The notes beneath the pieces were generated by a model. It worked only from the letters and a program-made list of their open reading frames with translations. It did not search any database and was not told where the DNA came from. DNA of 64,000 nucleotides from Methanobacteriota archaeon (GTDB lineage Archaea > Thermoplasmatota > Poseidoniia > Poseidoniales > Poseidoniaceae): the NCBI GenBank assembly GCA_014240385.1, contig JAAZXA010000068.1, positions 29,090 to 93,089 of the forward strand. Direction: 5' to 3'. Shown here piece by piece: positions 11,145 to 63,511 of the stretch (position 1 is the stretch's first letter; the number at the start of each line of letters is the position of its first letter). The position numbers and the translations under genes were made by a program.

Positions 11145-11389
11145 GAGCGGTTAGGCCATTTACATCTCTTCCTTCTGTCCATGTTTCTCTGAACTCAAAC
11201 TCCTACCATCAGGTCGTCCGAACTGCGGATTTGCTCCTGTCTCGTTCAATGTAGGTTCTCAAGCAAAGGCCATTTTGGACTAGGTAATTATGTTCCATTG
11301 GCCGTCCCCCGGCTACTTGTTGACTTTGCGTTGGTGCCGTCCAAGGATAGGACACCTTTTGCTTATCGTCGTATTGAGCCGTGAGCGGT
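11145..11389 (-). ncRNA. non-coding island B
   Basis: opens with ACCGCTCACGG (11381-11389), conserved hairpin at 11333-11356, closes with PM-ATG at 11144; only shadow ORFs. Confidence 0.4.
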
Positions 11390-26096: not shown

Positions 26097-26340
26097 GAGC
26101 GGTTCTTTTCATTCCAGCGGGGGATGTTTCGTCACCTTGAACTTGAGCCGACCCCCATCACTTGATTCTTGCCTACAAGCAGTGGGGAGGTATCTTTCAG
26201 TGGTGGGCGAGTATCGAGCCCCTTGTTTCAAAGAACCCGGTTATATCATTGGTTGTCTCCTTTCGAGTTTCTTCGGTGTCGTCCAAGGATTGGACACCTA
26301 CTTTCTCTACTTTGGACTGCAATAAGTCCCCGTGAGCGGT
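26097..26340 (-). ncRNA. non-coding island C
   Basis: opens with TGA-ATACCGCTCACGG (26332-26340), conserved hairpin at 26275-26298, closes with PM-ATG at 26096. Confidence 0.4.
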
Positions 26341-29073: not shown

Positions 29074-29378
29074 GAGCGGTTTGTACCGGCATACTCTTGC
29101 TTAGACTGTTCGCTGGACAGTTGGCCTGTGAATCTAACTGCAACACTCCGTCTTCCCGTTTCTGTCTCCGTAGATACAATTGAGGGAAGCTGCGGGTTTG
29201 TCAATTGACTCGATGGCATCGTGGCCGAAGCCGCAGGATGCCCTAAGCAGTATCTTACCGTAGGTACTTACCCGACTCGCCAATTAGGGGTCACACCATC
29301 CATGACTGTTGGTGCCGTCCAAGGATTGGACACCGTAAGCGTATTGGTTCTGCCCCGGTTAGGTCTGTCGTGAGCGGT
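29074..29378 (-). ncRNA. non-coding island D
   Basis: opens with TAA-ACCGCTCACGA (29370-29378), conserved hairpin at 29311-29334, closes with PM-ATG at 29073. Confidence 0.4.
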
Positions 29379-35865: not shown

Positions 35866-36765
35866 TCAACTGAACACAGTCAAGAGTTCCTTCCACTCCT
35901 TTGGAGCACCCATTCTTAGCCGAATTGCCCTGTCGAGGGTTCGGAATGTAACGGCATCGCCATTGGCGTGAGTCTCTTTCAAATGTTTCAATACGCCCCT
36001 TTTGATGTTAATATCAACGCCAGGGTACATATTGGGTAGAATTGTGTTCATTCGTTCAAAAACCTCTGTAGTTGTAAGAACAACAGGGACCAACCAAGAC
36101 CTGTCGACCAGGGGTTGAGGCATTTCATGTTCCATCTTGTTTGTGATGAAGATTACCTGTCCCTTGAAATCGAACTTTCTCGGTAGTCCGTTGTTATCAG
36201 CCCATGAACTGTTCCATGAGATGACTCTTTGTCCATATGAGTCAAGTGCAGCCTTGCACAGTTCCATCATAGTCTCCCCAGACCAGATATCCACATCGTC
36301 TAGCACTAGCACTCCACCTTCTTGGCGGTCGTGCATAGCGGTGTAGACTCCGGTAGGAGCAATGTGTCCGGCAACCCAAGTGAATCCTTGCTTGCCTTTC
36401 TTGTCCTCTACGAGGTTCATTCGCTTGAGTGCTTCCTTTACCATGTGAGATTTTCCTAGTCCGCCTGTTCCACAGACGATTACTGAGGGACTAAATCTTC
36501 GAATTACCATCAACACAATTGATTCCATCATTTCGAATCTTTTGTTGACTGAGTGTTTGCTCATTTTATCGGTAATCGATTGGTTTCGCGCTTTCATTTC
36601 TCGGATTTTGGTATTTTCCTCGATTGATTGCGTTTCTGCTGTTGTTGCTGTACTTGCAATTGGTGTTACAACTTCGTTAGTCACACTTGAGGGGTTCGTA
36701 AAATTGATGTTCTCAAGTGTGCCGTTTTTGATATTTGTTTCTCCTTGCAAGTTATTCGTTTGCAT
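35866..36765 (-). CDS. P-loop NTPase (AAA/SF3-helicase-like)
   Basis: PM-ATG; Walker A VIVCGTGGLGKSH, Walker B GGVLVLDDVD. Confidence 0.6.
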   Translation of the reverse strand: MQTNNLQGETNIKNGTLENINFTNPSSVTNEVVTPIASTATTAETQSIEENTKIREMKARNQSITDKMSKHSVNKRFEMMESIVLMVIRRFSPSVIVCGTGGLGKSHMVKEALKRMNLVEDKKGKQGFTWVAGHIAPTGVYTAMHDRQEGGVLVLDDVDIWSGETMMELCKAALDSYGQRVISWNSSWADNNGLPRKFDFKGQVIFITNKMEHEMPQPLVDRSWLVPVVLTTTEVFERMNTILPNMYPGVDINIKRGVLKHLKETHANGDAVTFRTLDRAIRLRMGAPKEWKELLTVFS

Positions 36766-37695: not shown

Positions 37696-37782
37696 CATGT
37701 GGGGTTATCGTTATGTCCATCTCGATTCATGGCTCCATTGCCGACCTCTAATAGGCGGAGCGGGATTTTTTTCGGTGTGTTG
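37696..37782 (-). repeat. 87-nt promoter/leader-like repeat, copy A
   Basis: near-identical to 40303-40390 (2 substitutions plus a 1-nt indel); ends in ACCCCACATG; contains an A7 run and CCTATTAGAGG. Confidence 0.85.
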
Positions 37783-39840: not shown

Positions 39841-40305
39841 TCATTGAGCGACCTGCCGCTTTCGTCTTGCTAAAGGAACTGGTGTTCTTTTGGGCTTGAC
39901 GGTTTTAGCGGCAGGTTGTACTCGGCTTCTGGACGCCTGATTAAACAGGTTAGTCGCAGATGATGTTCTTGCCTTATTCTTCTGCCCCTTGAACTGGGAT
40001 TTCTTGGCATGTGGCTTTGACGCCTTTGCCTTGACAGTTTTCATGTGCTTTCTCCAAGCCTTGATGTGATTATCATAGATTGGATCTGCGAAAACTGCTT
40101 CTGGCACATACCGAGAGACCATACTTCCGATTCGATTCCAGCCACCAAAACTCAATGAATCATTCATTGCGTTTTTGATTTTGGAAACATAGGATGCTGG
40201 AGCATTCTTATTCAGTTTGCTCCAGTGTTCGGAACCCATCTTGGTAACCCAAGTTGGGATGTAGAGTTCTTGCGGGGTTTCGATGTTCTTATTTTGCATA
40301 TTCAT
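39841..40305 (-). CDS. hypothetical protein with Lys/Arg-rich C-terminal tail (154 aa)
   Basis: track ORF; start follows the 88-nt repeat copy B. Confidence 0.7.
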   Translation of the reverse strand: MNMQNKNIETPQELYIPTWVTKMGSEHWSKLNKNAPASYVSKIKNAMNDSLSFGGWNRIGSMVSRYVPEAVFADPIYDNHIKAWRKHMKTVKAKASKPHAKKSQFKGQKNKARTSSATNLFNQASRSRVQPAAKTVKPKRTPVPLARRKRQVAQ

Positions 40306-40390
40306 GGGGGGTTATCGTTATGTCCATCTCGAATCATGGCTCCATTGCCGACCTCTAATAGGCGGAGCGGGATTTTTTTCGGTAGTGTTG
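40303..40390 (-). repeat. 87/88-nt promoter/leader-like repeat, copy B
   Basis: near-identical to 37696-37782; ends at the start codon of 39841..40305. Confidence 0.85.
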
Positions 40391-40778: not shown

Positions 40779-40800
40779 GTGGGGTATGGGAAGACTTTGT

Positions 40801-40841
40801 CTTCCTCATTAGCATAGGTCATAGGGGCCGTAGGCCCTGAC
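40801..40841 (-). repeat. 41-nt promoter-like module, copy 1
   Basis: CTTCCTCATTAGCATAGGTCATAGGGGCCGTAGGCCCTGAC; contains the GGGCC-GTA-GGCCC hairpin and, in minus sense, CCCTATGACC. Confidence 0.8.
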
Positions 40842-41034
40842 CGTTTTAGTCATGTTTTGGTGCTAAGTTTTATTCTACCTCTCGATAGAAACGGCGCAAA
40901 GCAACCTTTGGACTCCTCCCGTAAAGGGTGGTGTGTGTGGTGTTACGGGTGTCCATGGGTCTCTCTCGCCAATAAAGCGAGTTGTAGGCGTACTCCAACG
41001 CCTCGTTGTTCGTCAATGATTTGACTACACCTCA

Positions 41035-41168
41035 TGGTGGACCGTGCTGGATTCGAACCAGCGGCCTCCTAAGACAGACAACTTCGACTCCTTCCGTCCT
41101 GCCCGGGACAGTTCGGTTTTTGTCTTATTCTGTTTCTTAGGCGCTCTTCCTGACTGAGCTAACGGCCC
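41035..41168 (-). tRNA. tRNA-like gene with a 57-nt insertion in the anticodon loop and encoded CCA; identity unresolved
   Basis: reverse complement folds as GGGCCGT/TA/GCTC-AGTCAGGAA-GAGC/G/CCTAA-[64 nt]-TTAGG/AGGCC/GCTGG-TTCGAAT-CCAGC/ACGGTCC/A/CCA. Confidence 0.75.
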
Positions 41169-41193
41169 GTAACGGTGTTTTGAGGAAGTATTT

Positions 41194-41234
41194 CTTCCTC
41201 ATTGGTATAGGTCATAGGGGCCGTAGGCCCTGAC
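41194..41234 (-). repeat. 41-nt promoter-like module, copy 2 (upstream of the tRNA)
   Basis: CTTCCTCATTGGTATAGGTCATAGGGGCCGTAGGCCCTGAC; 3 mismatches to copy 1; followed in minus sense by hairpin GAGGAAG-AAATA-CTTCCTC. Confidence 0.8.
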
Positions 41235-41376
41235 CCATTTGTGTGTGGTTTTTGTGTGTTTGTGAGCGGTTTAGCCTGATTTCCAATCCATACTGACGAA
41301 CTTCCTCGTAAACCAATTCTGGCCTTTCGGCACTCTCGGTTTGCGTAAGAGAGCGAGATCGTTCCCCGTGAGGGGC

Positions 41377-41646
41377 TTAGATCTTCGTAGCTCGCCTTCT
41401 GTTCACCTGGAACCATTGCTGGTACAGGTGCTCTCCAATAACTACTGCTGCAGGGTCGAGCATCGGGTTTCCGCTTGCTAGTGGACGGTCAAAAGACCAA
41501 TCCATGTGCTTACGGTGTTGCCGATATTGCTGTCGCCTGTAACTCAAATAGGGGTGTCCTTCACCGTCAAAGCGGTGTCGGTAACGATATTTTCTTATTT
41601 TTCCCCTCTTCCCAGCATTGGAAATCGTTTGTTGGCTAATTTGCAT
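41377..41646 (-). CDS. possible very basic protein (89 aa)
   Basis: track ORF only; Arg/Tyr/Gln-rich; no PM or SD seen. Confidence 0.4.
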   Translation of the reverse strand: MQISQQTISNAGKRGKIRKYRYRHRFDGEGHPYLSYRRQQYRQHRKHMDWSFDRPLASGNPMLDPAAVVIGEHLYQQWFQVNRRRATKI

Positions 41647-42044
41647 TTATCATACAAGCCCTGAACTACCTCATGTCCGTGGGGCTAATCCACATTGTCC
41701 TTTCGGAGCGTAGAATCACCTAAGCAGCAACCAGCCGCTTTTGCTTCGTAACATATCGGACCAACTGACTAATGCCAGTAGTGATTAAGTCACCAACGAG
41801 GTCTTTTCGTCAATGTTACGGTTTTCGGTGGACTACATGGGAAAGGAGCGATGATAGTCGCTACTTTCTCTCAATGTATATCCGTTAGCCGAGAAGAGGC
41901 ACCAAAAGGTGCGGGTATCTCTATTTCTCGACCCGGTGTCTCGGTGAAGTCCTCTTTCGAGGGATCCTCCGCCTTATCCCCTATCTCTAGGGTTTAGCAG
42001 ATACTTCGTGTAGGCCCTTGAGCCAACCGAGAGAGGGCATTCCT

Positions 42045-42084
42045 GTCCTCATTAGATGAGGTCATAGGAGCCCTAGGCCTTGCC
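42045..42084 (-). repeat. 41-nt promoter-like module, degenerate copy 3
   Basis: GTCCTCATTAGATGAGGTCATAGGAGCCCTAGGCCTTGCC; faces the ORF-free 41650-42040 stretch. Confidence 0.6.
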
Positions 42085-42097
42085 GTAGCAAGGTGGT

Positions 42098-42563
42098 GTG
42101 TGGTATAATTTCTTCGTGGTTTTAGGCCACAGGAGGTATATGAATAGGCCCTTTTACTCTCTTTCCTTTGGATCTAGAGGCCTCAAGCTGCTACTCTTGG
42201 CCTCTTTCTCTAGAAAGAGTGTATTTTGGGTATTTCTTCATGTTCTCCACTGTATTGTGCCACAGGGGGTATATGAATAGGCCACTTGCAGTCAATTTCA
42301 AGATCGCTGAAAGGGCATGATTAGCTTCTCATGCCTTCGCTTTCAATTATTGCTTCAATATGGGTATTTCTTCATGTTCTCCACTGTATTGTGCCACAGG
42401 GGGTATATGAATAGGCCATATTTCGGTAACATCTCCAGATCTCTCCTTCGAAAGCTACTCCTGGCATGGCCGTAGGCCAAACAGGGTGAAATATGGGTAT
42501 TTCTTCATGTTCTCCACTGTATTGTGCCACAGGTGTTATTTGGCAAGGCCGTTTCCGTTAACC
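42098..42563 (+). promoter_or_regulatory. four tandem promoter-like repeats at about 133-bp phasing; the last drives the TFB-like gene
   Basis: TGGGTATTTCTTCATGTTCTCCACTGTATTGTGCCACAGGGGGTATATGAATAGGCC at 42227 and 42360; degenerate copy at 42098; copy at 42493 ends GGTGTTATTTGGCAAGGCC, 28 nt before ATG 42564. Confidence 0.75.
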
Positions 42564-43694
42564 ATGGCGAGTAATGACGATACGGCCAATCAGATGGGGG
42601 CGACTGCTGATTTTTCGTCAATATCGTCTGTCCTTTGTCCTGCATTCGAACAGCCGCCTGGGTGTGCCGTCTCCCTTGCCAAGCAACAAAACTTTGATTC
42701 TTTGTCAGTCGACTCTATGACTGGGAGGGCGTATTGCGGATCATGCGGCGTGGAATTCGTTGTTGACCGTTATCAGGTTAGTCATGAGCAGAAAAAGAGT
42801 GATGATGGGATAGAAACCTACGGATCTGTTCTCTCCAAGTCTGGGAAGCAACGGAATAGGGAACAATCCTTTGACCGCCTGGGCTATCTTTGTATTAGCA
42901 AGTTGGACTTATCTCAAAGTGTGTTGGCACAAGCTACCCGCTACCTGTACGATATGATGGAAGGTGGAGCCGCTAAAGGAGGTCGGGGTTTTCCCCAACT
43001 CGAAGTGGTTGCGGCTTATGTGGCAGGTAGAATGCATAATCAATCCCTTACTCTCGAACATGTTGTTAATATCCATCGAGATTGGATTACAGAAGAAGGG
43101 GAGTTCAAATCGATAAAGGCGGCATCTATGAAATCAGTTAATCGATTGCTGCAGAATATGACTAGGGAAAACATTCTGCCTTACCCCCGCCCTTCTGCAG
43201 ATGATATCATTGGTTCTAATTCGTGGTGCTTGGCTAATCTAGATGAAGTCATTATTCAGAATGCTAAGGAGTTGTCTAATTGCGGAGTCCAAGGTTCCCC
43301 CGATTCTATTGCTGCAGCATCGGTGATGGTGGCTGCGAAGAATAAGCGTGTTGTGAAACCCGGAGATGACTTATCGCGGCCACGAACACAAATGGCCGGA
43401 GAGGAAGATGGGCAGCGTTTAACGCTCGAAGTGATTGCCAAATTGTTTCCTGGCACTACTGCTAGAACTGTAAGGCGAAGAATGAAAGAGATTAGGGATG
43501 TTTTGGAACTTAGGCTACCTCTAACACGAGAGCAAGTAGAGGTTCTTGAAAATCCTGATCCCCGCAAGGTGCGTGTCCGTAATACTGTTGAGGAAGTATT
43601 CAGTCAATTGGATTCGGAATTGGAAGGAAAGATACCATTGACTTCTAAGGATGTAGCAATTCTACGAAAATTGAAAGATTCAAACAAGAGGTAA
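42564..43694 (+). CDS. TFB/TFIIB-like transcription factor (376 aa)
   Basis: track ORF 42486..43694 trimmed to MASNDD. N-terminal Cys pairs (CPAF..GC, CGSCG). Two cyclin-like repeats: RGFPQLEVVAAYVAGRMHNQSLTLEHV and GSPDSIAAASVMVAA...LTLEVIAKLFPGTTARTVRRRMKEI. Confidence 0.7.
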   Translation: MASNDDTANQMGATADFSSISSVLCPAFEQPPGCAVSLAKQQNFDSLSVDSMTGRAYCGSCGVEFVVDRYQVSHEQKKSDDGIETYGSVLSKSGKQRNREQSFDRLGYLCISKLDLSQSVLAQATRYLYDMMEGGAAKGGRGFPQLEVVAAYVAGRMHNQSLTLEHVVNIHRDWITEEGEFKSIKAASMKSVNRLLQNMTRENILPYPRPSADDIIGSNSWCLANLDEVIIQNAKELSNCGVQGSPDSIAAASVMVAAKNKRVVKPGDDLSRPRTQMAGEEDGQRLTLEVIAKLFPGTTARTVRRRMKEIRDVLELRLPLTREQVEVLENPDPRKVRVRNTVEEVFSQLDSELEGKIPLTSKDVAILRKLKDSNKR

Positions 43695-44135
43695 TGTGAT
43701 TTCCCTTTTGGTTTTCTTGGAATCTTTTCTGTATTGCAACAGAACATAATGGATGTCTCTGCGATTGTAGCTTCCGTTTTCATCTGGTTCTGCGGACCAA
43801 CAGGCATACCTTAGTGAGCGGTTTTCTTCCTGCATTAGTTCCAACATGGTTTCAGGGCCAACGCTGTACACTTCCTTGACTTCTCTGAGAGATAATTGCT
43901 CATCTGGAACTAATCGCCAAAGTGTTCGTCTGTATTCTCCTGTTCCATCCTTTGTTCTTTCAACACCTGCTGGATCAAACCTTTCTGGGTATGATGAAAG
44001 GATCCCAGCAATTACTGATTTCCGTTCTTTACCCATTTTGTCTAGTATTCGGTCAAAAGGGAGAATTTCATCTTTGGACTCATGGAAGATTTTCTCAATC
44101 TTTGGGACAAGGCGGTTTTTTGCCTTCCTTGCCAT
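43680..44135 (-). CDS. putative winged-helix protein (151 aa)
   Basis: track ORF; GAGG-type SD upstream of ATG 44135; contains an internal sense-strand AAACCGCTCAC at 43814-43822. Confidence 0.6.
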   Translation of the reverse strand: MARKAKNRLVPKIEKIFHESKDEILPFDRILDKMGKERKSVIAGILSSYPERFDPAGVERTKDGTGEYRRTLWRLVPDEQLSLREVKEVYSVGPETMLELMQEENRSLRYACWSAEPDENGSYNRRDIHYVLLQYRKDSKKTKREITLPLV

Positions 44136-48314: not shown

Positions 48315-48950
48315 ATGGTTGATGGTCTTCTGCAGCATGATGAATATTCTGATGTTTGTCCAATCTGCAAGGAAATTGTCACCGAAGAAGAATGGCCTGT
48401 GCCGATTTCGAGAATGGAAGAACGGACAGGGCAGAAGTTTCCCCCTTGCGTAGTATGTGGTTCTGATGAAGACATCCATTACAATTACCTGACTATGCCT
48501 CAGAAGGATGGAAGAGGATTCAATCACAATCTTTTGCTGTGGTGCGAATCCTGCGGAAGTGGTACGCAACATGATGGGTTTGATGTATTGACAGGTAAGC
48601 CCAAGATCGCCCTGCGATTACCGAATGAGTTTTCCAATGATTCGATGGAGAAGGCGAAGGAACGGCTTGAAGCGGCTTTGGCCGCAGGTGAACAGGATGA
48701 AGAACTCGCCCAGGAGATCCAAGCAATGTTAGTCATGCGTGGTTTTTTCCGAGTCCACCATTACCCTTGCTTAGATGATGGTTGGGATGCGATGGGGCAT
48801 GGAGTCCGACCACTAGAAAGAAACGAGATTATGAAGAGGTTCTATGAATGGTCTAATGATGAGGCCATAGGTGTGGCCGAACTGTCTGACAATCCTTTGA
48901 CGAAGAATAAATCTCCTAGGACTCGAAAGCGTGGGAAGCGTTGGTGGTAA
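48315..48950 (+). CDS. multi-zinc-finger protein (211 aa)
   Basis: track ORF; GGAGGAG SD; CPICKE, CVVCGS, CESCGS. Confidence 0.7.
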   Translation: MVDGLLQHDEYSDVCPICKEIVTEEEWPVPISRMEERTGQKFPPCVVCGSDEDIHYNYLTMPQKDGRGFNHNLLLWCESCGSGTQHDGFDVLTGKPKIALRLPNEFSNDSMEKAKERLEAALAAGEQDEELAQEIQAMLVMRGFFRVHHYPCLDDGWDAMGHGVRPLERNEIMKRFYEWSNDEAIGVAELSDNPLTKNKSPRTRKRGKRWW

Positions 48951-48958
48951 CGAACTGA

Positions 48959-48973
48959 TTATATGACTGAACC
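48959..48973 (+). promoter_or_regulatory. promoter-like box P2 TTATATGACTGAACC
   Basis: ATATGACTGAAC begins exactly 27 nt before ATG 48988. Confidence 0.6.
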
Positions 48974-48987
48974 ACTTGAACCAAATC

Positions 48988-49146
48988 ATGCGAGACCCAA
49001 CCTACAAAATCGCCCTAGTCTTTGAAGATGCAGAAGGAAACAATGTTACTCTGGCAACAGATGTACCTGAGAACCAAGTCGGATTGGCACATGCTTCAAT
49101 GTTGAAGCTTGCTGCTGGACTCAAAGGCAAGAGCGACGACGAGTGA
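48988..49146 (+). CDS. hypothetical protein (52 aa), below track cutoff
   Basis: MRDPTYKIALVFEDAEGNNVTLATDVPENQVGLAHASMLKLAAGLKGKSDDE; start positioned by box P2. Confidence 0.5.
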   Translation: MRDPTYKIALVFEDAEGNNVTLATDVPENQVGLAHASMLKLAAGLKGKSDDE

Positions 49147-49189: not shown

Positions 49190-49729
49190 ATGCTCAGCCA
49201 ACCGCATTCTGCTGTAAATCACATGAATTACAGTATTCTTGGTTCACATACTGTTCAAGATGCGGCCAATAATGCGAAGAATAATTTCTCTCCTTCGCAG
49301 AGATCTAGACATGCTCGAACCGCATATCAGAATAATCATCAGAATCTAATGCAACCGGCTATTGCTAACAATCCTCATCTTGCAGATGTTTTGAGAGGTT
49401 CTCAAGATCCAATGGGCGCCTCTTGGAATACTGGCGCTTTTCTCATCGCCGCAGGCGTGGGTGGGTTATTGTCGGTGGTGTCGTCGTCGAAGGACTTGAA
49501 GAGTTTTGGGAAATCGAAGAAGACACAAAGGAGAAACATTACCATTGGTACTATGATTGCTGCTTGTGGGCTGCTTGCAGTTGGATATTCGAAGAATTCT
49601 GAATTAATTCCCGCAGGTATCGGACTTCTTTCTGGCAATGTGGTTGGCAACAACTTGTGGTCTATCGGCTCCCGCGATTCTGGATTCGACTTTACGCCTT
49701 CGAAGTCCCTATTTGAGTTGGACTACTAG
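49190..49729 (+). CDS. membrane protein (179 aa; start uncertain, alternative ATG 49223)
   Basis: track ORF; TM segments GAFLIAAGVGGLLSVV and IGTMIAACGLLAVG. Confidence 0.65.
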   Translation: MLSQPHSAVNHMNYSILGSHTVQDAANNAKNNFSPSQRSRHARTAYQNNHQNLMQPAIANNPHLADVLRGSQDPMGASWNTGAFLIAAGVGGLLSVVSSSKDLKSFGKSKKTQRRNITIGTMIAACGLLAVGYSKNSELIPAGIGLLSGNVVGNNLWSIGSRDSGFDFTPSKSLFELDY

Positions 49730-50446: not shown

Positions 50447-51211
50447 ATGACGCTAAGCGGATTCATTGCAATGCCTCGAAAACCGGGGAAAACAAAGATT
50501 GGGCAGATCCTCAAGAATATTGGATTCAAGGATAAGGGAGCAGCAGGAAATATGTGGGTCTTTGGTAAGACTCGGTTCCGTGTAGATGTGGTTGATTTTA
50601 GGGATGATTTGAGAGATCATGACGCTGAATGGGTTGAAGAAGTTGGATGGGATGATAATTGGGCCGTCCGTATTGCTGTCAATCATTCTAACAGAACAGA
50701 TGAAAATTACATCTTGTGGCATTCGATTCTAGTCATAGCCGCTGAGTGCTTAGGCGTTAGAGAAATTTGGTTAGATGGCGGCACAGGCATTCCACAGCAA
50801 CCGTACACACTTCGAGAGTTGTTTCCTGAATTGAAATCTGATGAAGGAGAAGACTTGATTGAAGAATCCGAAGCCGCCCCTGTTCTAGTCGACAAGGCAG
50901 AAGTCTTGGAGCTTCCAGATATTGAAACACCTGCTGAGCCTGTTTTGGTTCCATCTGAGCCTGAGCCTGAGCCTGAGCCTGAACCTGTGCCTGAGCCTCA
51001 AACAGAATCGTCCGAAGAGGATTACGATTCCTGGGGATGGGATGAGGATGAGGATGAGGATGAGGATGAGGATGAGGATGAGGACGATTCATGGAATGAG
51101 GATGAGGATGAGGATGAGGATGAGGATGAGGACGAGGATGAATCCGAAGAAGAGAATGAATCCGAAGAGAATGAATCCGAAGAAGGTGTTGATGTAATCA
51201 CTGAATGGTGA
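50447..51211 (+). CDS. protein with (EP)n and (DE)n low-complexity C-terminal half (254 aa)
   Basis: track ORF 50396..51211 trimmed to the ATG set by box P4. Confidence 0.7.
   Translation: MTLSGFIAMPRKPGKTKIGQILKNIGFKDKGAAGNMWVFGKTRFRVDVVDFRDDLRDHDAEWVEEVGWDDNWAVRIAVNHSNRTDENYILWHSILVIAAECLGVREIWLDGGTGIPQQPYTLRELFPELKSDEGEDLIEESEAAPVLVDKAEVLELPDIETPAEPVLVPSEPEPEPEPEPVPEPQTESSEEDYDSWGWDEDEDEDEDEDEDEDDSWNEDEDEDEDEDEDEDESEEENESEENESEEGVDVITEW
50957..50998 (+). repeat. hexanucleotide tandem repeat (GAGCCT)x7, imperfect
   Basis: read directly; encodes EPEPEPEPEPVPEP. Confidence 0.9.
51041..51142 (+). repeat. two runs of (GATGAG)n hexanucleotide repeat
   Basis: 51041-51085 and 51096-51142; encode DEDEDE... 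tracts. Confidence 0.9.
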
Positions 51212-51948
51212 GTTCTTTGGTTGAAGGGGGTGCAATGGCGTGGGGAGGCCTCCTTTACCTCAAGCACCTTTGGGATTCTTGGAAAAGTCACCGAATAGGA
51301 ATATATGGCCTGTGGGCGTGTGGTAAGACCACCCTGAATCGTTATTTGAATACCTCTGGGGATCTCGAAGAAGATACTGCCCGTATGACTAGCACCGCTC
51401 ACCCCTATGATAAGAAGAAGAAGCAGTATGTTCCACCAAATGCAACCCGCAAGAGAATTCATGTTTTGTCCGAAGCAAATCAGTCATTCCGTAGAACCAT
51501 TCTCTCGTCTGATATTGGAGGCCAGTCCGAATATTTCAATCTCTGGGTTCGAGATTTGGTGTTGCGTGATGTTGAAGTAATCATCTATCTGGTTGATTCA
51601 AGGGATGATCCAGATGGGCTTCAAGAGGCAACATTTCGAGACTTTACGAGAATTATTGCCGAGAGAGATTTCCGTTTTACTGAACGAAAATTGAGGAAAA
51701 AGGCCAGAAATTATCAGCCGAAGGTGGTAGCCCTTGTTGCCAATAAATCGGACCTTTGGCTCAATCCAGACGAACGGGCGTATTACGAGGGGTCTGGCAT
51801 TGGCAGGCATCCAATTTTTGATGCTTACAGGCCGCACTTGGTACGGCTACAGAGAGCCGGTATTCCTACTTTGAAGCGAAGTATTTCAGCCCTCCATGGG
51901 TATGATGTGGAGCGATTAATATGGGATTGCTTGAAGGCGAAGTCGTGA
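51205..51948 (+). CDS. Arf/Arl/Sar-like small GTPase (247 aa; alternative start ATG 51235)
   Basis: G1 GLWACGKTT, G3 DIGGQSEYFNLW...IIYLVDSRD, G4 ANKSD, G5 SAL; hydrophobic N-terminal helix MAWGGLLYLKHLWDSW, as in Arf. Confidence 0.75.
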   Translation: MVSSLVEGGAMAWGGLLYLKHLWDSWKSHRIGIYGLWACGKTTLNRYLNTSGDLEEDTARMTSTAHPYDKKKKQYVPPNATRKRIHVLSEANQSFRRTILSSDIGGQSEYFNLWVRDLVLRDVEVIIYLVDSRDDPDGLQEATFRDFTRIIAERDFRFTERKLRKKARNYQPKVVALVANKSDLWLNPDERAYYEGSGIGRHPIFDAYRPHLVRLQRAGIPTLKRSISALHGYDVERLIWDCLKAKS

Positions 51949-51959
51949 TATGACTAAAC
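51945..51959 (+). promoter_or_regulatory. promoter-like box P5 GTGATATGACTAAAC
   Basis: ATATGACTAAAC begins exactly 27 nt before ATG 51975. Confidence 0.55.
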
Positions 51960-51974
51960 CACTTGGCAACTACC

Positions 51975-52748
51975 ATGTCGATGTTTGGCGATGAGGCTTC
52001 GAGTGGTCTGGAGGATTCTCATTTTATGTCGAATGTGAGGTTCACCTTCGATGACAATCCGGATCCATACAAACGAAGAAAGATAAATATGAAAAACGCG
52101 TATGGCGTTTTGAAACCAAAGCGTAGATGGAGGATTGGTTCCCCCGTCCATAACAATGCAGGACAATGTTGTGTTACTGGTATTGATTTGAGGGCTTTGG
52201 GTGCTGAAGCTTACAACAGGGCTTTACTTGACCCGCATACCCTGCAGCCTGTGGATGATGGTCGAACATTGATGACTGAGTTCTTTCTAGATCATTTGAC
52301 GGGCAAACCAGTTCAGTTTGCGGCTCAATCTGGAGTTACTACTGGTTTGCCGCTTCGTTCGTCTTATTGTCCAGGATTATTGCAGATTTATTGGTTGTAT
52401 ACTCAATGGAAATATGAAACCGATATGGAAGAACAGGGTAGGAATAGTTCATTCCTTAGAAGTAGAGGTATTGAATTAAAGCCTTTGAGAAGAAAGGATG
52501 TCAAAAAGCGCAATAGACCCTTGTTAGTCGATGAAATTGAGCCTTTTTTTGCTAAGGTCAAAATGCATGAAGGGCAGGGCATAACCATTGTTGAGTATTC
52601 TAATCCTGATGAAAATTCTAACTTCTTCGGAGAGATTGATTTAGTACACATAACATTGGATTTGCGGAAGATGCGAAGCGAGGAATTAAATAGGGAAAAG
52701 ACAAAGGGGGGCAACCCCTCCGATAATCAAAGCGAGGTTATACCATGA
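51975..52748 (+). CDS. hypothetical protein (257 aa)
   Basis: track ORF 51963..52748 (TTG) trimmed to the ATG set by box P5. Confidence 0.7.
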   Translation: MSMFGDEASSGLEDSHFMSNVRFTFDDNPDPYKRRKINMKNAYGVLKPKRRWRIGSPVHNNAGQCCVTGIDLRALGAEAYNRALLDPHTLQPVDDGRTLMTEFFLDHLTGKPVQFAAQSGVTTGLPLRSSYCPGLLQIYWLYTQWKYETDMEEQGRNSSFLRSRGIELKPLRRKDVKKRNRPLLVDEIEPFFAKVKMHEGQGITIVEYSNPDENSNFFGEIDLVHITLDLRKMRSEELNREKTKGGNPSDNQSEVIP

Positions 52749-55200: not shown

Positions 55201-55297
55201 ATGAAAGTGAAAGTGTTGAATATGAATTGAGCCCCGGCGATACTGAGGGTATATGAACTATGCATAGTGGAAGAATTTCCTTGCGGCAGTAATGAAG

Positions 55298-55371
55298 CGG
55301 CCCCACGGGGATTTGAACCCCGGTTACTGGTTCCGCAAACCAGTGTGATATCCAAGCTACACTATGGGGCC
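55298..55371 (-). tRNA. tRNA-Arg (anticodon GCG), no encoded CCA
   Basis: GGCCCCA/TA/GTGT..TCAC/A/CTGGT-TTGCGGA-ACCAG/TAAC/CGGGG-TTCAAAT-CCCCG/TGGGGCC/G. Confidence 0.85.
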
Positions 55372-58703: not shown

Positions 58704-59082
58704 GGTTCGTTCACCATAACCTTGGTTAATTGTCGCTATGAAGGGTCAGTCGTATTACACCTTCGCCCTGTGAACCGAATTATCACCCGTTTAACACGCT
58801 ATTCCCCCCCACATAGGGGGTATGTTGACGATGAAGGAGTTCCTTTGCGCTCAACCCCCCCACCTTCATAGTCAAAAACGGGTATTTTTCACCTCATAAC
58901 TTCTCATTGAATCGCAAGTCCTCACATCACATCTCAATTGTAAGGTTGGGGTGGAATGAACCTCATGTGGTTCTGCGCTTCTAACCTTCGTTCACAGGCA
59001 ATTCCAATTCCTATCTACACATTAGGGGTGAATTACCTACTTCGTGCAACAAGGGATCTAGATGAAACAATAGGAAACAAGG

Positions 59083-59156
59083 CGGGTCATGCAGGGTTCG
59101 AACCTGCGGCCTACTGGTTAAGAGCCAGTCGCTCTACCTGACTAAGCTAATGACCC
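59083..59156 (-). tRNA. tRNA-Lys (anticodon CUU)
   Basis: GGGTCAT/TA/GCTT-AGTCAGGTA-GAGC/G/ACTGG-CTCTTAA-CCAGT/AGGCC/GCAGG-TTCGAAC-CCTGC/ATGACCC/G. Confidence 0.9.
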
Positions 59157-60026: not shown

Positions 60027-60656
60027 CTAGAATCCATACGGTTGCCCTAGTAGCCCTCTCGCATTACTGTGTCCGTCTAGGTTAGTGTATCTTCGTCTCG
60101 ATATCTCAACGAATTTCAAGAATATTGTTCCTGTTGTCTGGAGGTTTTGAACCTTCAAACGGATTCTATGCCTGTATGGCCTAAGACCTCGGAACATTGC
60201 TACTTTGAGTGTGGCTGTATCTTTCTTCAAGAACCAATTTCCATACTGCTCAGGCATTCCTAAATCAGATACATCTTCAAGGATGATTCCTTGGTATGAT
60301 GATGATGATGTCGTGTCGTAATGGCTTTCCAATCCGCCTTGAGCGAATCCGTCTAATTGTAAGAAGACTGCGAGTTTCTCAGGGTTTGCAGGGGTGCTTC
60401 CGTCTGGAAGGTCGCCTGCATCTGCTGTAGCTTGAATAATCACATAGTTCAATTCCCCGGATTCTCTGTCATCGAGAATTGTTAGGGTTTCGCCAGCCGC
60501 TATTTCGATTTTGTTTCTGCGGATGGTGATGTCTCGAAGATCTTGTTGGTCTGCTCTGCCGCCATCCATACCTGCCATCGGATCTATGATTAGAGGTATT
60601 TCCATTGGCGGTGCTGAGTCAATTATATCGCTAATTCCATCTGGTTCGTGTTCCAT
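60027..60656 (-). CDS. hypothetical (probably virion-associated) protein (209 aa)
   Basis: track ORF; TGATG overlap with the upstream fibre-like gene. Confidence 0.65.
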   Translation of the reverse strand: MEHEPDGISDIIDSAPPMEIPLIIDPMAGMDGGRADQQDLRDITIRRNKIEIAAGETLTILDDRESGELNYVIIQATADAGDLPDGSTPANPEKLAVFLQLDGFAQGGLESHYDTTSSSSYQGIILEDVSDLGMPEQYGNWFLKKDTATLKVAMFRGLRPYRHRIRLKVQNLQTTGTIFLKFVEISRRRYTNLDGHSNARGLLGQPYGF

Positions 60657-63511
60657 CAGTAATCCCTCCGATGTGTTGAGCGTGGGTCTCTGCGTTGTTT
60701 ATGCCTTCTCCTGGATGTGCCGTTAAGGATTACTTCTGTCTGAGGTGTTATTTGGTTCGTGGCATTGTCGAACTCTTGTTTGTTCATTGGAGTTCCTTTG
60801 TGGTTCCTTACATGCTCATGCCAACCCTCAGCAGGTCCAGCAGGCCCAGCAGTTCCTCTACCGAGTCCTTGTTTCTTGTATGCATCTAGAGCGTGTGGGA
60901 TTACTTCGTATTTGAATCCGCCAGATCTCTTAGTCATTCGTCTGACTTCTGGGTCTGGGACTGGTCGAAGTTTGTATTTGTAGCCAACAATGGTGAGCAC
61001 AGGATCTAAGATGTCTTCATCATTACCTGCAATCTGGAATTCGGGTAGGTTCTCTTCACCAACTCCGACCCAGAGCATGTAGGTTGGGTTCGGAGCAATT
61101 GCTGGAGATTCATTGGCTGTTATCCATCCTGTTTTGTTAATCATCAGGGCATCATTGTTATCCATTCCTACATCGTCTCTGAATGCTACTCCTTGAGCCG
61201 CGAACTTTGGTACTCCTTTTGGTTGGTATACTCGAAGTCTTGCGCTTGTGTAGCCAACGAATGTTTTCTGCATTTTCCCTCGAGTTGTTGTTGGTGCAGT
61301 CCAGTCGCATTGGTAGGCTGTTCCGTTGTCTGGTAGTTTACCAAGTTGGTCTCTCATGACACCTCCGAAATGCGTTGATTTAGGACCTGTTTCGGTAGTC
61401 CCAGCATTGAGGACAGTTAATTGTTCATCAGTATCAAAAAGGTATGTTGTTGGGGAGAAGGGTACATCGCTTCGGGTAGCCTTGGCGAAACCACCTGCTG
61501 CAGTAATGAATTTGGGTGTGTGATTCAAACCAACGCCTACATGATATACGACTGACTTGTCTTTTTTGGATAAGGTGTCCAATATTGTGGCTTGGAATTT
61601 GTTTAGCATTGTTTGCGTTCCTGCGGCTTCTGAACCAGCATGTCCAGGAATGAATTGGATTCGAACAGGATCTCCTGCTACGAATCCTTGGTGAGTAAGG
61701 GCTGCTGTGGTGAAAGTACCTTGTTTGTTGCTCAATGTAACTGCCCCTGTAATTTTTGCTACCTCACGGACGGCTCCGTTTTGCCCTCCAAATATGATGT
61801 CGGTTCCTACAGGTATTACGAGGCTGTCCCATGAGCTTCCAGCAATGGCCTCATTTTCTGTTACATTGATTACAAATGATGTCATCCCTACATTCAATGA
61901 AACCAATTCTGCCTCGAGACCCACTGGGAGTGCAACCGTCAATGAATCAACGCCGGTTACCCTGTGTAACCCTGCGCCCGTCATTACCAATTGTCCTGGC
62001 ATCAACTTCTGCGGGACTCTTCCTCCTTGAGCGAGGGCGGCTCCTGCTGGTTTTGTGTTGGGTGCGGTCTTCCTCGTTACTTTGATGGTTTGGAGACCTC
62101 CTCGAGTCACTACTGCATTCTTGTTGTAGTTGTTCAATGTTGAAGTGGCTGTTGCCTTGGTTGATGAGCCACCTCCAGTGAATGTGATTGGGGGCGGGGT
62201 TCCATAACCTGCTCCGGGATTGGTAATATCAACTGATTCAACAGTTGTTGAGGTTAATGTGGCGGTCATGGTTTCTGCGGCGCCACAGTTGGCTTGACCT
62301 GCTAGGAGCGCAGTAGATGAGGCAATTGCGTATGCTCCCGTTCCGCCTGAATCTGCTGCTATGGGAAGGACTGCTGCCCCGAACTGGTCGCAGAATGGAT
62401 CTGCTGGTAATACAGTTAATGTCGGGGGTGCGGTGTAACCTGCTCCTGGCGTTGATACTGTAACTGAAGCTATTGTGGTTGGAATGAGGCTGGCGACTGC
62501 AGTGGCACCGCTTCCTGCAAACCCCGTAAGGCCTGATAAGTCGATGGTGGGTGCTGATGTGTAACTTCCACCTGCTGATGTTATGGTTACTACTGTGATT
62601 GTATTGCCTGCGACATCTACTGTTGCAGTACCAGATCCACTTACTGTAATGCTTAGGCCGGTCCCATTGGTTAGGCCTGTTCCTGCATTGGTGATTGTAA
62701 TTCTTCCTAGAGTGGTTGCGGTTAATACTGGAACACATACTGCTGCAGTTGTTGGTGTGTCGTCATTTGACGGGGTGACTACGAGTGTTGGAACCTTCGT
62801 ATACTTCGCTGTAAGGGCGCTGCCCTCAGAACGGGCTACTGCTGAACCTGCTACGGCGACTGATGCTACGCTAGTGCCTGTTAATTTGGCAACTGCGGTA
62901 GCACCGCCCCCAGTATCAATCCAAGCCTCTGCTTCTGCTGAATAGGTTGGGTCACTTTGAGCACTACTGGAACCTGTTGAATCTGTAAGGGCGACCGTAG
63001 GCGGTGTTGTATACCCACTTCCTCGAGAATTGGCATCGGTTGTATCGCCTTGAGGGAATATGATTTGTTGGATTGTACCATTGCGAATGTAAGCAAATGC
63101 TAGGGCTCCAGAACCTGCGCCTCCGGAGAAGGCGATTTTAGGCCCGATTTCATACCTGCTAGTGGTATCGGGGTTTGTACCCCATGTAGACACCGTAGCA
63201 GACTTTGTAGCGCCCGTGTAATCCGTTATTTCACGGACTTGCCCTGCGCCCGTCCCAGATTCGATGTAAATGTATGCGCCATTGTAGTAATCGTCAGCGG
63301 CATTTGCTGTTCCTGCTAGAACTATTGTAGTTCCGCTTCCGCCTGTTGCCATTCCGTTTGTGTGATTGTCATAGATGAAGCGTCCTGCACCGCTTGAACC
63401 GTCATTGAGGATGTTCAATTTGGTTATGAAGCCCGAAACAACGGCAACTGTCGGAACAGTTTCATAACTGACTCCTGCGCCCGTTATTTCGATTGATTTT
63501 ATACCTGCCAT
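60656..63511 (-). CDS. large fibre/decoration-like structural protein with repeated GxGYTxxPxV modules (951 aa)
   Basis: track ORF. At least four G(S/A)GYT(T/A/S)(P/A)PT(V/L/I) repeats. ADDYYNGAYIYIESGTGAGQVREITDYTGATKSATVS motif common in phage fibre proteins. Gly/Thr/Ala-rich. Confidence 0.6.
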   Translation of the reverse strand: MAGIKSIEITGAGVSYETVPTVAVVSGFITKLNILNDGSSGAGRFIYDNHTNGMATGGSGTTIVLAGTANAADDYYNGAYIYIESGTGAGQVREITDYTGATKSATVSTWGTNPDTTSRYEIGPKIAFSGGAGSGALAFAYIRNGTIQQIIFPQGDTTDANSRGSGYTTPPTVALTDSTGSSSAQSDPTYSAEAEAWIDTGGGATAVAKLTGTSVASVAVAGSAVARSEGSALTAKYTKVPTLVVTPSNDDTPTTAAVCVPVLTATTLGRITITNAGTGLTNGTGLSITVSGSGTATVDVAGNTITVVTITSAGGSYTSAPTIDLSGLTGFAGSGATAVASLIPTTIASVTVSTPGAGYTAPPTLTVLPADPFCDQFGAAVLPIAADSGGTGAYAIASSTALLAGQANCGAAETMTATLTSTTVESVDITNPGAGYGTPPPITFTGGGSSTKATATSTLNNYNKNAVVTRGGLQTIKVTRKTAPNTKPAGAALAQGGRVPQKLMPGQLVMTGAGLHRVTGVDSLTVALPVGLEAELVSLNVGMTSFVINVTENEAIAGSSWDSLVIPVGTDIIFGGQNGAVREVAKITGAVTLSNKQGTFTTAALTHQGFVAGDPVRIQFIPGHAGSEAAGTQTMLNKFQATILDTLSKKDKSVVYHVGVGLNHTPKFITAAGGFAKATRSDVPFSPTTYLFDTDEQLTVLNAGTTETGPKSTHFGGVMRDQLGKLPDNGTAYQCDWTAPTTTRGKMQKTFVGYTSARLRVYQPKGVPKFAAQGVAFRDDVGMDNNDALMINKTGWITANESPAIAPNPTYMLWVGVGEENLPEFQIAGNDEDILDPVLTIVGYKYKLRPVPDPEVRRMTKRSGGFKYEVIPHALDAYKKQGLGRGTAGPAGPAEGWHEHVRNHKGTPMNKQEFDNATNQITPQTEVILNGTSRRRHKQRRDPRSTHRRDY

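Follow-up and report, generated by a model that had tools for sequence, protein, structure and literature searches.

The Gene and Its Product

The stretch of 64,000 nucleotides from contig JAAZXA010000068.1 analyzed here (hereafter, the window) carries a plus-strand gene for a divergent member of the TFB/TFIIB family of transcription initiation factors, on what is best read as a discrete marine virus-like genome of ~128 kb. The window consists of three blocks: a minus-strand one with ~85 small genes, most of them orphans (1–40.8 kb), a block on the plus strand (42.5–53.7 kb), and a second block on the minus strand (54–64 kb). The TFB-like gene is single-copy within the window. It lies in a plus-strand open reading frame (ORF) of 402 aa counted from GTG (42486–43694), in which the ATG at position 42564 is the better start, because conservation among homologues begins there and the 78 nt upstream form a conserved promoter-like box. 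The coding sequence thus extends from 42564 to 43694 (+; stop codon 43692–43694) and specifies 376 aa. This is the product that a previous, sequence-only reading of the DNA had described, and the peptides quoted at that time (CPAF..GC..CGSCG, GGRGFPQLEVVAAYVAGRMHNQSLTLEHV, GSPDSIAAASVMVAA, and LTLEVIAKLFPGTTARTVRRRMKEI) were all found in the translation. The public gene call P0001 (402 aa, 100% identical) translates the upstream box by mistake. Indeed, the gene predictions P0001 to P0004 all begin at an upstream GTG or ATG (42486–42563 in the window), which renders the box as a peptide, e.g., 'YGYFFMFSTVLCHR'; the same peptide reappears in spurious ORFs across the array of boxes (42098–42480).

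Homology and Fold of the Core

With Pfam, the TFIIB domain (PF00382) matched only the first repeat of the window protein (aa 112–170; E = 2e-4) at 21.7 bits, which is under the gathering score of 23.6 bits; three other members of the family are above it (P0010, 23.8; P0011, 29.3; P0019, 29.5). Searches of NCBIfam and the Protein Data Bank (PDB) with the single sequence or with a 7-sequence profile returned zero matches. Only the profile made from the family alignment of 17 sequences, called A2, reached TFB in the PDB, with matches to the Pyrococcus TFB core (1d3u_B/1ais_B; E = 8e-13), to human TFIIB (E = 4.6e-10; residues 104–292, which cover both cyclin repeats and the helix-turn-helix, HTH), and to yeast TFIIB (E = 5e-3). 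These matches to TFB/TFIIB cores settle the homology, and the nearest solved relative is archaeal TFB. Structure prediction pointed in the same direction: the top Foldseek hits of a first AlphaFold model (predicted local distance difference test, pLDDT, of 66.8) were all TFIIB/TFB chains (7nvu_M, E = 1.7e-7), and a second model, built from A2, had a pLDDT of 76.7, with a core above 90. In addition, HMMER reproduced the TFB motifs that the sequence-only reading had aligned by hand, as it placed GGRGF..VAAYVAGR on Pyrococcus 'RGRSIESVMAACVYAACR', G.PDSIAAA on human 'RSPISVAAAAIYMAS', and LTLE..TARTVRRRMKEI on 'RTQREVAEVARVTEVTVRNRYKEL'. Since the A2 profile, Foldseek, and the HMMER motif alignments agree, the TFB/TFIIB fold and family membership are confirmed.

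The two tandem cyclin-like five-helix repeats of the TFIIB core are both present. The first (42843–43166, +; aa 94–201) contains the GGRG motif and the Pfam TFIIB match, and hidden Markov model (HMM) alignment relates it to Pyrococcus TFB residues 6–81; its helices are modeled at aa 94–113, 118–133, 143–157, 164–170, and 189–201, with pLDDT >90. The second (43197–43514, +; aa 212–317) is interrupted by an insertion of ~28 aa and ends in the HTH LTLEVIAKLFPGTTARTVRRRMKEI (43425–43505, +; aa 288–314), which aligns with the Pyrococcus segment 'RTQREVAEVARVTEVTVRNRYKEL' and has modeled helices at 288–294 and 300–317. The HTH that closes repeat 2 is the element with which TFB and TFIIB read the B recognition element (BRE) of promoters. 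In the window protein this HTH is present, and contact with a BRE is predicted from alignment and model. In its recognition helix, the T-[VI]-R-x-[RS]-x-[KR]-E pattern of TFB/TFIIB is retained, with differences at neighboring positions.

Departures from Canonical TFB

Compared with archaeal TFB (Pyrococcus woesei/furiosus; 1AIS, 1D3U), the protein differs in its N-terminal Cys knuckle, in the length of its reader/linker (~36 aa vs. ~70–75), in insertions in both repeats, and in a conserved C-terminal domain of ~60 aa, in addition to a score under the Pfam gathering threshold. The N-terminal Cys4 module (42636–42746, +) comprises C25, C34, C58, and C61 in the arrangement C-x8-C-x23-C-x2-C. It had been suggested that the Cys pairs could form a zinc ribbon. 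What holds from this suggestion is the set of four conserved Cys, invariant in the close family and kept in 15 of the 17 members of the wider one, with the pattern CPxWExPxxC ... CxxCG. However, the first knuckle is C-x8-C and not the C-x2-C of the canonical ribbon, the match to Pfam Zn_Ribbon_TF (E = 0.16) is far under the cut-off, and the region is modeled at a pLDDT of 50–66. Only the second knuckle, with the strand after it, aligns with 'ICPECGLVV' of human TFIIB, at 0.8 bits, a value that is non-significant alone. We therefore refer to this module as a modified, putative B-ribbon.

In place of the B-reader and B-linker, there is a short linker (42747–42842, +; aa 62–93) that holds the start of LSKSGKQRNRE (aa 88–98), a motif that continues into the first core helix and is conserved in the family as LSKSGxxRxRE. 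By HMM alignment, the distance from the last Cys (C61) to the 'RN' motif of the core (R97) is 36 aa, compared to ~75 in human TFIIB (C37–R112), so that about half of the canonical length (~70 aa) is missing. In cellular TFBs, truncation of the B-reader/linker impairs initiation. As a consequence of its altered ribbon and short reader/linker, the window protein may not behave as a full general factor.

The insertions in the core are clade-specific and consist of a beta-hairpin in repeat 1 (aa 173–183) and of aa 259–287 in repeat 2. Finally, the family-specific C-terminal extension (43515–43691, +; aa 318–376) contains an NP(D/P) motif and, after it, an amphipathic helix that closes the protein, LTxxDVxxLRxLK. 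N330, P331, and L367 are invariant or nearly so in the 17 family members, and helices are modeled at 322–328, 333–353, and 361–375. The extension has no counterpart in TFB/TFIIB, which end at the HTH.

The shortened linker and altered first knuckle, together with the low-confidence model of the N-terminus and the lack of a genome-wide cognate promoter motif in the 64-kb window, would fit a decoy or shut-off factor, i.e., a dominant-negative TFB that retains the core for binding TBP and DNA, has a disabled RNA polymerase (RNAP)-activating N-terminus, sits non-productively on TBP-TATA or on the RNAP dock, and so represses host transcription. Truncated or B-reader-less cellular paralogues, such as Pyrococcus TFB2 and Sulfolobus TFB3, do have reduced or non-canonical activity. 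We consider such a role unlikely, however: the conservation of the Cys4 module, of LSKSGxxRxRE, and of the C-terminal tail in a family that is only 22–25% identical points to a specific positive function, and the conserved element at the BRE position before the protein's own gene suggests sequence-specific promoter use.

The Upstream Promoter-Like Boxes

The sequence-only reading also placed the gene next to a family of non-canonical promoter boxes. Such boxes exist, in the form of four tandem units (42100–42563) and three variant boxes (at 40800, 41193, and 42043). The gene-proximal box (42526–42563, +) is composed of GCCACAGG (42526–42533), TG, TTATTTGG (42536–42543), CAAGGCC, and 13 nt that lead to the ATG. 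Relative to this ATG, the TATA-like TTATTTGG is at −28 to −21 and GCCACAGG at −38 to −31, which is the position of a BRE. Archaeal TATA boxes are centered ~26 nt upstream of the transcription start, and the spacing observed here therefore predicts a start at or next to the ATG and a leaderless or near-leaderless mRNA. Unlike the archaeal BRE consensus, which is purine/A-rich, the upstream element GCCACAGG is GC-rich.

Across lineages, the box has the consensus RYGCCAYMGG-NN-TATA-like, with the TATA-like part 21–28 nt before the ATG. The proximal box and its spacing to the ATG are kept at six loci from three lineages, which are the window itself and the related metagenomic loci L001, L002, L003, L004, and L007. 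In L004 and L007, whose TFB-like proteins are only ~22% identical, the boxes read GCCATCGG/GCCATAGG. Two deep lineages differ jointly in box (CACAGG vs. CATCGG) and in recognition helix (ARTVRRR vs. RKRINRA), which is suggestive of co-evolution of the box with the helix, in a comparison of two lineages only.

Upstream of the proximal box, three further tandem units (42100–42525, +) follow each other with a period of 133–134 bp and the pattern ...TTCTYC..GTG GCCACAGG RGG TATATGAATA GGCC, of which the core is ...TTCTCCACTGTATTGT GCCACAGG GGG TATATGAATA GGCC. Arrays of 2–5 units, with a period of 121–138 bp, precede the orthologous gene in L001–L004, and tandem copies are found in all lineages. 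The variant boxes are of a second type, type B, in which a GC palindrome after GTCATAGG replaces the TATA-like element and which is conserved in L001–L003. The one at 40800–40847 (+) reads TCCTCATTAGCATAG GTCATAGG GGCCGTAGGCCC; the one at 41193–41240 (+) is 25 nt upstream, in minus orientation, of the 5′ end of a tRNA-Gln gene; and the one at 42043–42090 (+) stands directly before the tandem array. The flank of this last box, 'AGCCAACCGAGAGAGGGCATTCCTGTCCTCATT', is shared without change by L001 and L002 and can be clearly made out in L003. The ~800 bp between tRNA-Gln and the array (41240–42040) contain no convincing ORF and no Rfam match at E up to 1, and this stretch is partly conserved at the DNA level in L001–L003, AGCCAACCGAGAGAGGGCATTCCTGTCCTCATT being an example.

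It had been proposed that the virus redirects the host RNAP to its own promoters, in the manner of phage sigma factors. A redirection to many viral promoters through these boxes is unsupported by the distribution of the motif: the boxes are found only directly upstream of the TFB-like gene, and the other genes of the window start from ordinary Shine-Dalgarno sites, from TATA-like leaderless promoters of another kind, or from the ACCGCTCATG motif, which is unrelated. Restricted to 1.8 kb of upstream DNA, the boxes speak for autoregulation or for a local form of control and less for a global switch of the sigma kind. Judged by their sequence conservation, the boxes are real and under selection, and they make up a local control region and not a dispersed promoter family.

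The tandem units are also located where gene orientation and GC skew switch, and they may loosely resemble the archaeal origin recognition box (ORB; TCCAsTG ... GGGGG). This raises the question of whether the 133-bp units are replication iterons and the protein an origin-associated DNA-binding factor, bound to them as the TFIIB-fold protein Orc6 is at eukaryotic origins. We judge this improbable. Neither in structure nor in sequence does any other match come near TFB, and both repeats are in TFB orientation; every unit has a TATA-like element, and the proximal unit keeps a promoter-like spacing to the ATG in all lineages; the switch in GC skew merely follows gene orientation.

A Conserved Neighborhood in Sister Elements

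Gene order around the TFB-like gene is kept in all lineages, even where the TFB-like proteins are ~22% identical. It consists of the block of small minus-strand genes, the intergenic control region, the TFB-like gene (+), and a gene of 136–151 aa (−), followed by a small ORF, a large GT4 glycosyltransferase, a GT2 glycosyltransferase, a 211-aa gene, and onward. In the window, the neighbor of 151 aa (43680–44135, −) is convergent with the TFB-like gene, which it overlaps by 15 nt at its 3′ end. It adjoins the TFB-like gene in every lineage examined and is the sole gene that is always beside it; it is a candidate functional partner. The 151-aa protein has 16 metagenomic relatives, from 87% down to 24% identity, several of them on contigs of 101–129 kb. 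It had no match in Pfam or PHROG, and a profile search of the PDB gave only spurious hits. By eye, it resembles a winged-helix protein.

A few genes downstream of the TFB-like gene, four sister elements encode a protein of 161–162 aa (L004, 12019–12507; L005, 8432–8920; L006, 7488–7976; L007, 6416–6901) that is composed of an N-terminal RpoH/Rpb5 C-terminal domain, of the RNA polymerase subunit H type, and an acidic tail. No homologue of this RpoH-like gene was found in the window, where the positional equivalent (49190–49729) is unrelated. L004–L006 also encode a geranylgeranyl reductase, an enzyme of archaeal lipid saturation (L004, 6122–7315), which is absent from the window.

In the nucleocytoplasmic large DNA viruses, TFIIB-like factors work with viral RNAPs. 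The RpoH-like protein invites this comparison, and the TFB-like protein might likewise be the partner of a virus-remodeled RNAP, altered by viral subunits, and not of the unmodified host enzyme. Many giant-virus TFIIB homologues are indeed among its neighbors in the BFVD database, and half of the ~128-kb genome lies outside the window. However, among the window proteins scanned there is neither an RpoH-like protein nor any other RNAP subunit, and no large RNAP subunit was present in any of the loci fetched, which makes this partnership a poor candidate. An origin from a eukaryotic giant virus was rejected because the genome architecture is prokaryotic, with Shine-Dalgarno-led, tightly packed genes, and because the best match is archaeal TFB.

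Distribution of the Family and Nature of the Element

Relatives of the TFB-like protein are rare. Seven close ones were found among 5.8 billion proteins, and when 1.84 billion cluster representatives were searched with a profile, 16 family members came up; all are metagenomic, and the distant ones carry TFIIB Pfam matches. Neither tblastn of the protein nor megablast of 20 kb of the window gave any match in 50,697 phage and virus records. One relative is on an IMG/VR contig of 127.5 kb (IMGVR_UViG_3300020446_000001), and others are on contigs from Tara and other marine metagenomes. A protein identical to the 151-aa neighbor is recorded on a contig of 128,049 bp, and the contigs that carry family members measure 101–129 kb, several of them 125–129 kb. 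Among these members, one was submitted as 'uncultured Mediterranean phage uvMED' and another was mis-binned into a metagenome-assembled genome of Flavobacteriaceae.

The window contains ~100 genes, mostly orphans, and no housekeeping genes. Those that can be recognized encode DNA methyltransferases, PAPS-reductase-like proteins, two glycosyltransferases, an Arf-like GTPase, a serine recombinase, and three tRNAs. The tRNA-Gln(CTG) (41038–41168, −) has a 57-nt intron at the non-canonical position 33/34, according to ARAGORN, and an encoded CCA end; it was detected by Rfam and missed by default ARAGORN. The other two are tRNA-Arg(GCG) (55297–55371) and tRNA-Lys(CTT) (59081–59156).

Overall, the presence of a TFB/TFIIB-like factor on a virus-like element, as first claimed in the sequence-only reading, is supported by sequence profile, fold, and synteny. 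The word 'virus' is upheld in part. It is likely from the relatives in an IMG/VR viral genome and in a uvMED phage and from the recurrent size of ~128 kb; on the other side, scans of ~49 further window proteins against Pfam and of 20 against PHROG identified no capsid, portal, or terminase, and a 951-aa ORF (60656–63511) had only weak PHROG hits to virion proteins. A discrete marine virus-like genome of ~128 kb is the best reading of the element.

That TFB is universal in archaea, and that the scans of the window identified no hallmark gene of virions, could also suggest an ordinary cellular TFB on a chromosomal fragment. This is hardly credible given that only 7 close and 16 total relatives were found in the 5.8 and 1.8 billion proteins searched, all of them metagenomic, with none in 185,579 species genomes; that these relatives are on an IMG/VR viral contig and on recurrent contigs of 125–129 kb, one of which is labeled uvMED phage; and that ~100 mostly orphan genes are accompanied by methyltransferases, PAPS reductases, a serine recombinase, and tRNAs, whereas housekeeping genes are absent.

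The host of the element is most probably an archaeon, because of the affinity of the protein to TFB, the intron-bearing tRNA-Gln, the TATA-like boxes ~25 nt before several ATGs of the window, and the genes of the sister elements. Among the ~49 other window proteins, the Pfam scan identified no TBP, TFE, or RNAP subunit, in keeping with a dependence of the factor on its host.

Proposed Mode of Action

The reading that we prefer, with a probability of about 0.5, is that of an alternative TFB, which would bind TBP-TATA complexes of the host, read a private element at the BRE position, and bring in the host RNAP. The TFB-like core would dock on the host TBP-TATA complex; the HTH would read the virus-specific RYGCCAYMGG, located at the BRE position before the TATA-like box; and the modified Cys4 ribbon would recruit the host RNA polymerase. 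The factor would thus drive, and probably autoregulate, the tandem promoter array in the control region at 40.8–42.6 kb, from which the products would be a leaderless mRNA of the TFB-like gene and possibly short RNAs from the upstream units. With its own tandem promoter region as the main visible target, it may provide autoregulation or early high expression. Because the B-reader/linker has half the usual length, the opening of promoters and the choice of start sites probably have less strength or require a helper, and candidates for such a helper are the host TFE or the 151-aa neighbor.

Several points weigh against this reading. Homology, fold, domain differences, and the architecture and conservation of the promoters were computed, and we infer every binding step, whether to TBP, DNA, or RNAP. 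The ribbon is non-canonical and poorly modeled, and the B-reader/linker is truncated. The box motif (GCCAYMGG) is confined to 40.8–42.56 kb and has no copy elsewhere in the 64 kb, and no broad regulon is visible. If the factor requires its own box, its first expression must still be due to the TFB of the host. Another protein might instead bind the boxes, or these might be replication iterons. Only about half of the ~128-kb element lies in the window, and a viral TBP or RNAP subunit could therefore be encoded elsewhere. As regards the host, pattern scans of 185,579 GTDB species genomes gave no match, either with the close-family alignment of the TFB-like protein (A2 being too divergent for such a scan) or with the geranylgeranyl reductase of the sister lineage.

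More tentatively, and with rather long odds, the protein could be the specificity subunit of a self-contained viral initiation module, formed with the 151-aa protein (and with the RpoH-like protein in the sister elements), which reprograms the host RNAP. It is conceivable, at the same low level of confidence, that in such a module the ribbon and linker have been re-engineered and a new C-terminal domain added, and that the TFB reads RYGCCAYMGG as a private, GC-rich BRE. If this were true, it would be the first archaeal counterpart of phage sigma/appropriator systems, and the tandem array would be an autoregulatory switch or an RNA-producing hub.

Relationship to Known Systems

Altered TFBs that redirect or modulate initiation in a manner similar to a sigma switch are known from cellular archaea, as in the multi-TFB families of haloarchaea, Pyrococcus TFB2 (which has no conserved B-reader), and Sulfolobus TFB3. 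These paralogues are chromosomal and clearly alignable to TFB1, whereas the family described here is borne by a mobile element and is much more divergent. The alternative TFB that we favor would also have a functional analogy with phage sigma factors (T4 gp55, SPO1 gp28), as a virus-encoded initiation factor that re-targets the host RNAP. The host domain is different, however, the structural relatedness is only remote, and no dispersed cognate promoters are found here.

TFB homologues have been annotated in the Italian rudiviruses MRV1, ARV3, and SSRV1, in the Asgard wyrdvirus WyrdV1 and related mobile genetic elements, and in magrovirus YSH_150918 (ON649702); in the magrovirus literature that was searched, TFB is unmentioned. 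These are likewise TFB-family genes borne by viruses, which otherwise rely on the host RNAP, and a viral TFB as such is thus not without precedent. The SSRV1 TFB is a structural neighbor of the window protein in BFVD (Foldseek E = 2.6e-5). Nonetheless, no sequence relationship with the other archaeal-virus TFBs could be detected (tblastn, 50,697 records), and the present proteins constitute a very small family apart, distinguished by particular N- and C-terminal features, by a conserved synteny, and by a promoter array.

The top BFVD hits are TFIIB-like factors of eukaryotic large DNA viruses (E about 1e-6); such factors are commonplace in giant viruses and poxviruses. The TFIIB of mimivirus and pithovirus, the C315R-like protein of African swine fever virus (ASFV), and the poxvirus factor VITF-3 (PMC12917281) have the same viral TFIIB fold, which is used for virus-specific promoter recognition. 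Unlike the window protein, however, they serve virus-encoded RNAPs in eukaryotes; here the organization is prokaryotic and no viral RNAP is in the window.

What is new is a separate and extremely divergent family, with non-canonical termini, a conserved neighborhood, and a conserved promoter array that looks cognate. Archaeal viruses are believed to rely completely on the RNAP of their hosts, and how they take over initiation is hardly documented; the characterized examples of transcription takeover are repressors such as RIP from ATV (Acidianus two-tailed virus). In the literature searched, no functional test was found of the TFB genes annotated in archaeal viruses. The present case is unusually tractable in this respect, as the protein comes with a conserved and precisely positioned candidate target, a tandem BRE-position element and TATA-like box, which appears to co-vary with the recognition helix between lineages. 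Together, gene and box array allow a test of whether viruses control the initiation of transcription in archaea. The protein naturally has only about half of a B-reader/linker and would therefore show which parts of TFB are dispensable for recruitment as opposed to promoter opening. The gene also marks an abundant, undescribed group of marine archaeal virus-like genomes of ~128 kb from Tara and other ocean metagenomes.

Other Features of the Window

Nearly every gene of the ~85-gene minus-strand block (159–39078) is directly preceded by the start motif ACCGCTCATG (CATGAGCGGT on the plus strand), of which there are 82 exact copies; its ACCGCTC part occurs 93 times on the minus strand vs. 3 times on the plus strand. 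In approximately half of the cases, the stop codon of the preceding gene abuts the 7-nt spacer. The motif is conserved as ACCRCTCATG in L001 and L003, and is absent from the TFB-like gene and the other blocks. It was considered as a BRE/TATA-type promoter for the TFB-like factor, a role that was rejected because there is no information content at −20 to −40. Likewise, ACCGCTC is not the Shine-Dalgarno sequence of the host, since genes in the other blocks use GGAGG/GGTGA; Shine-Dalgarno sites precede 15 of the 29 genes in those blocks vs. 6 of the 87 in the motif block. ACCGCTCATG may instead be a dedicated signal for translation, re-initiation, or RNA processing in one class of genes.

In the larger intergenic gaps of the same block, there is a four-copy family of hairpins, GGTGYCGTCCAAGGATWGGACACC (1947–1983, 11328–11364, 26270–26306, and 29306–29342). 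In minus orientation, a variant of the start motif without ATG, ACCGCTCAC (2011, 11389, 26340, and 29378), precedes each of them at 25–36 nt. The hairpins may correspond to small RNAs, terminators, or operon boundaries. Two direct repeats of 81 nt, 98% identical (37696–37776 and 40303–40383), are found upstream of genes on the minus strand that have ACCCCACATG or ACCCCCCATG, and not ACCGCTCATG, as their start context.

In the plus-strand block, a tandem (GATGAG)n repeat (51025–51168) inside the ORF at 50447–51211 encodes a long tract rich in Asp and Glu. The genes that start at ATG 48988 and ATG 51975 (+; 48950–48990 and 51940–51975) share a leaderless-type element, GAT(T)ATATGACTRAACCACTTG, which ends ~10–12 nt before the ATG and suggests a second class of promoters in the element. 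Nearby, a protein of 247 aa (51205–51948, +) has a Pfam match, above cut-off, to the Arf family of small GTPases (E = 1.6e-5), an unusual find in a prokaryotic virus; conserved counterparts are present in L003 (64% identity) and L004 (49%). Finally, a protein of 299 aa in the first minus-strand block (35866–36765, −) has weak P-loop features and belongs to phrog_1250 (E = 2e-43). By tblastn, it has matches in 1,305 phage records, which are for the most part from T4-like phages of Proteobacteria and in which it has no annotation or is described as a putative clamp loader, and it represents a rare link of the element to bacterial jumbo or T4-like phages.

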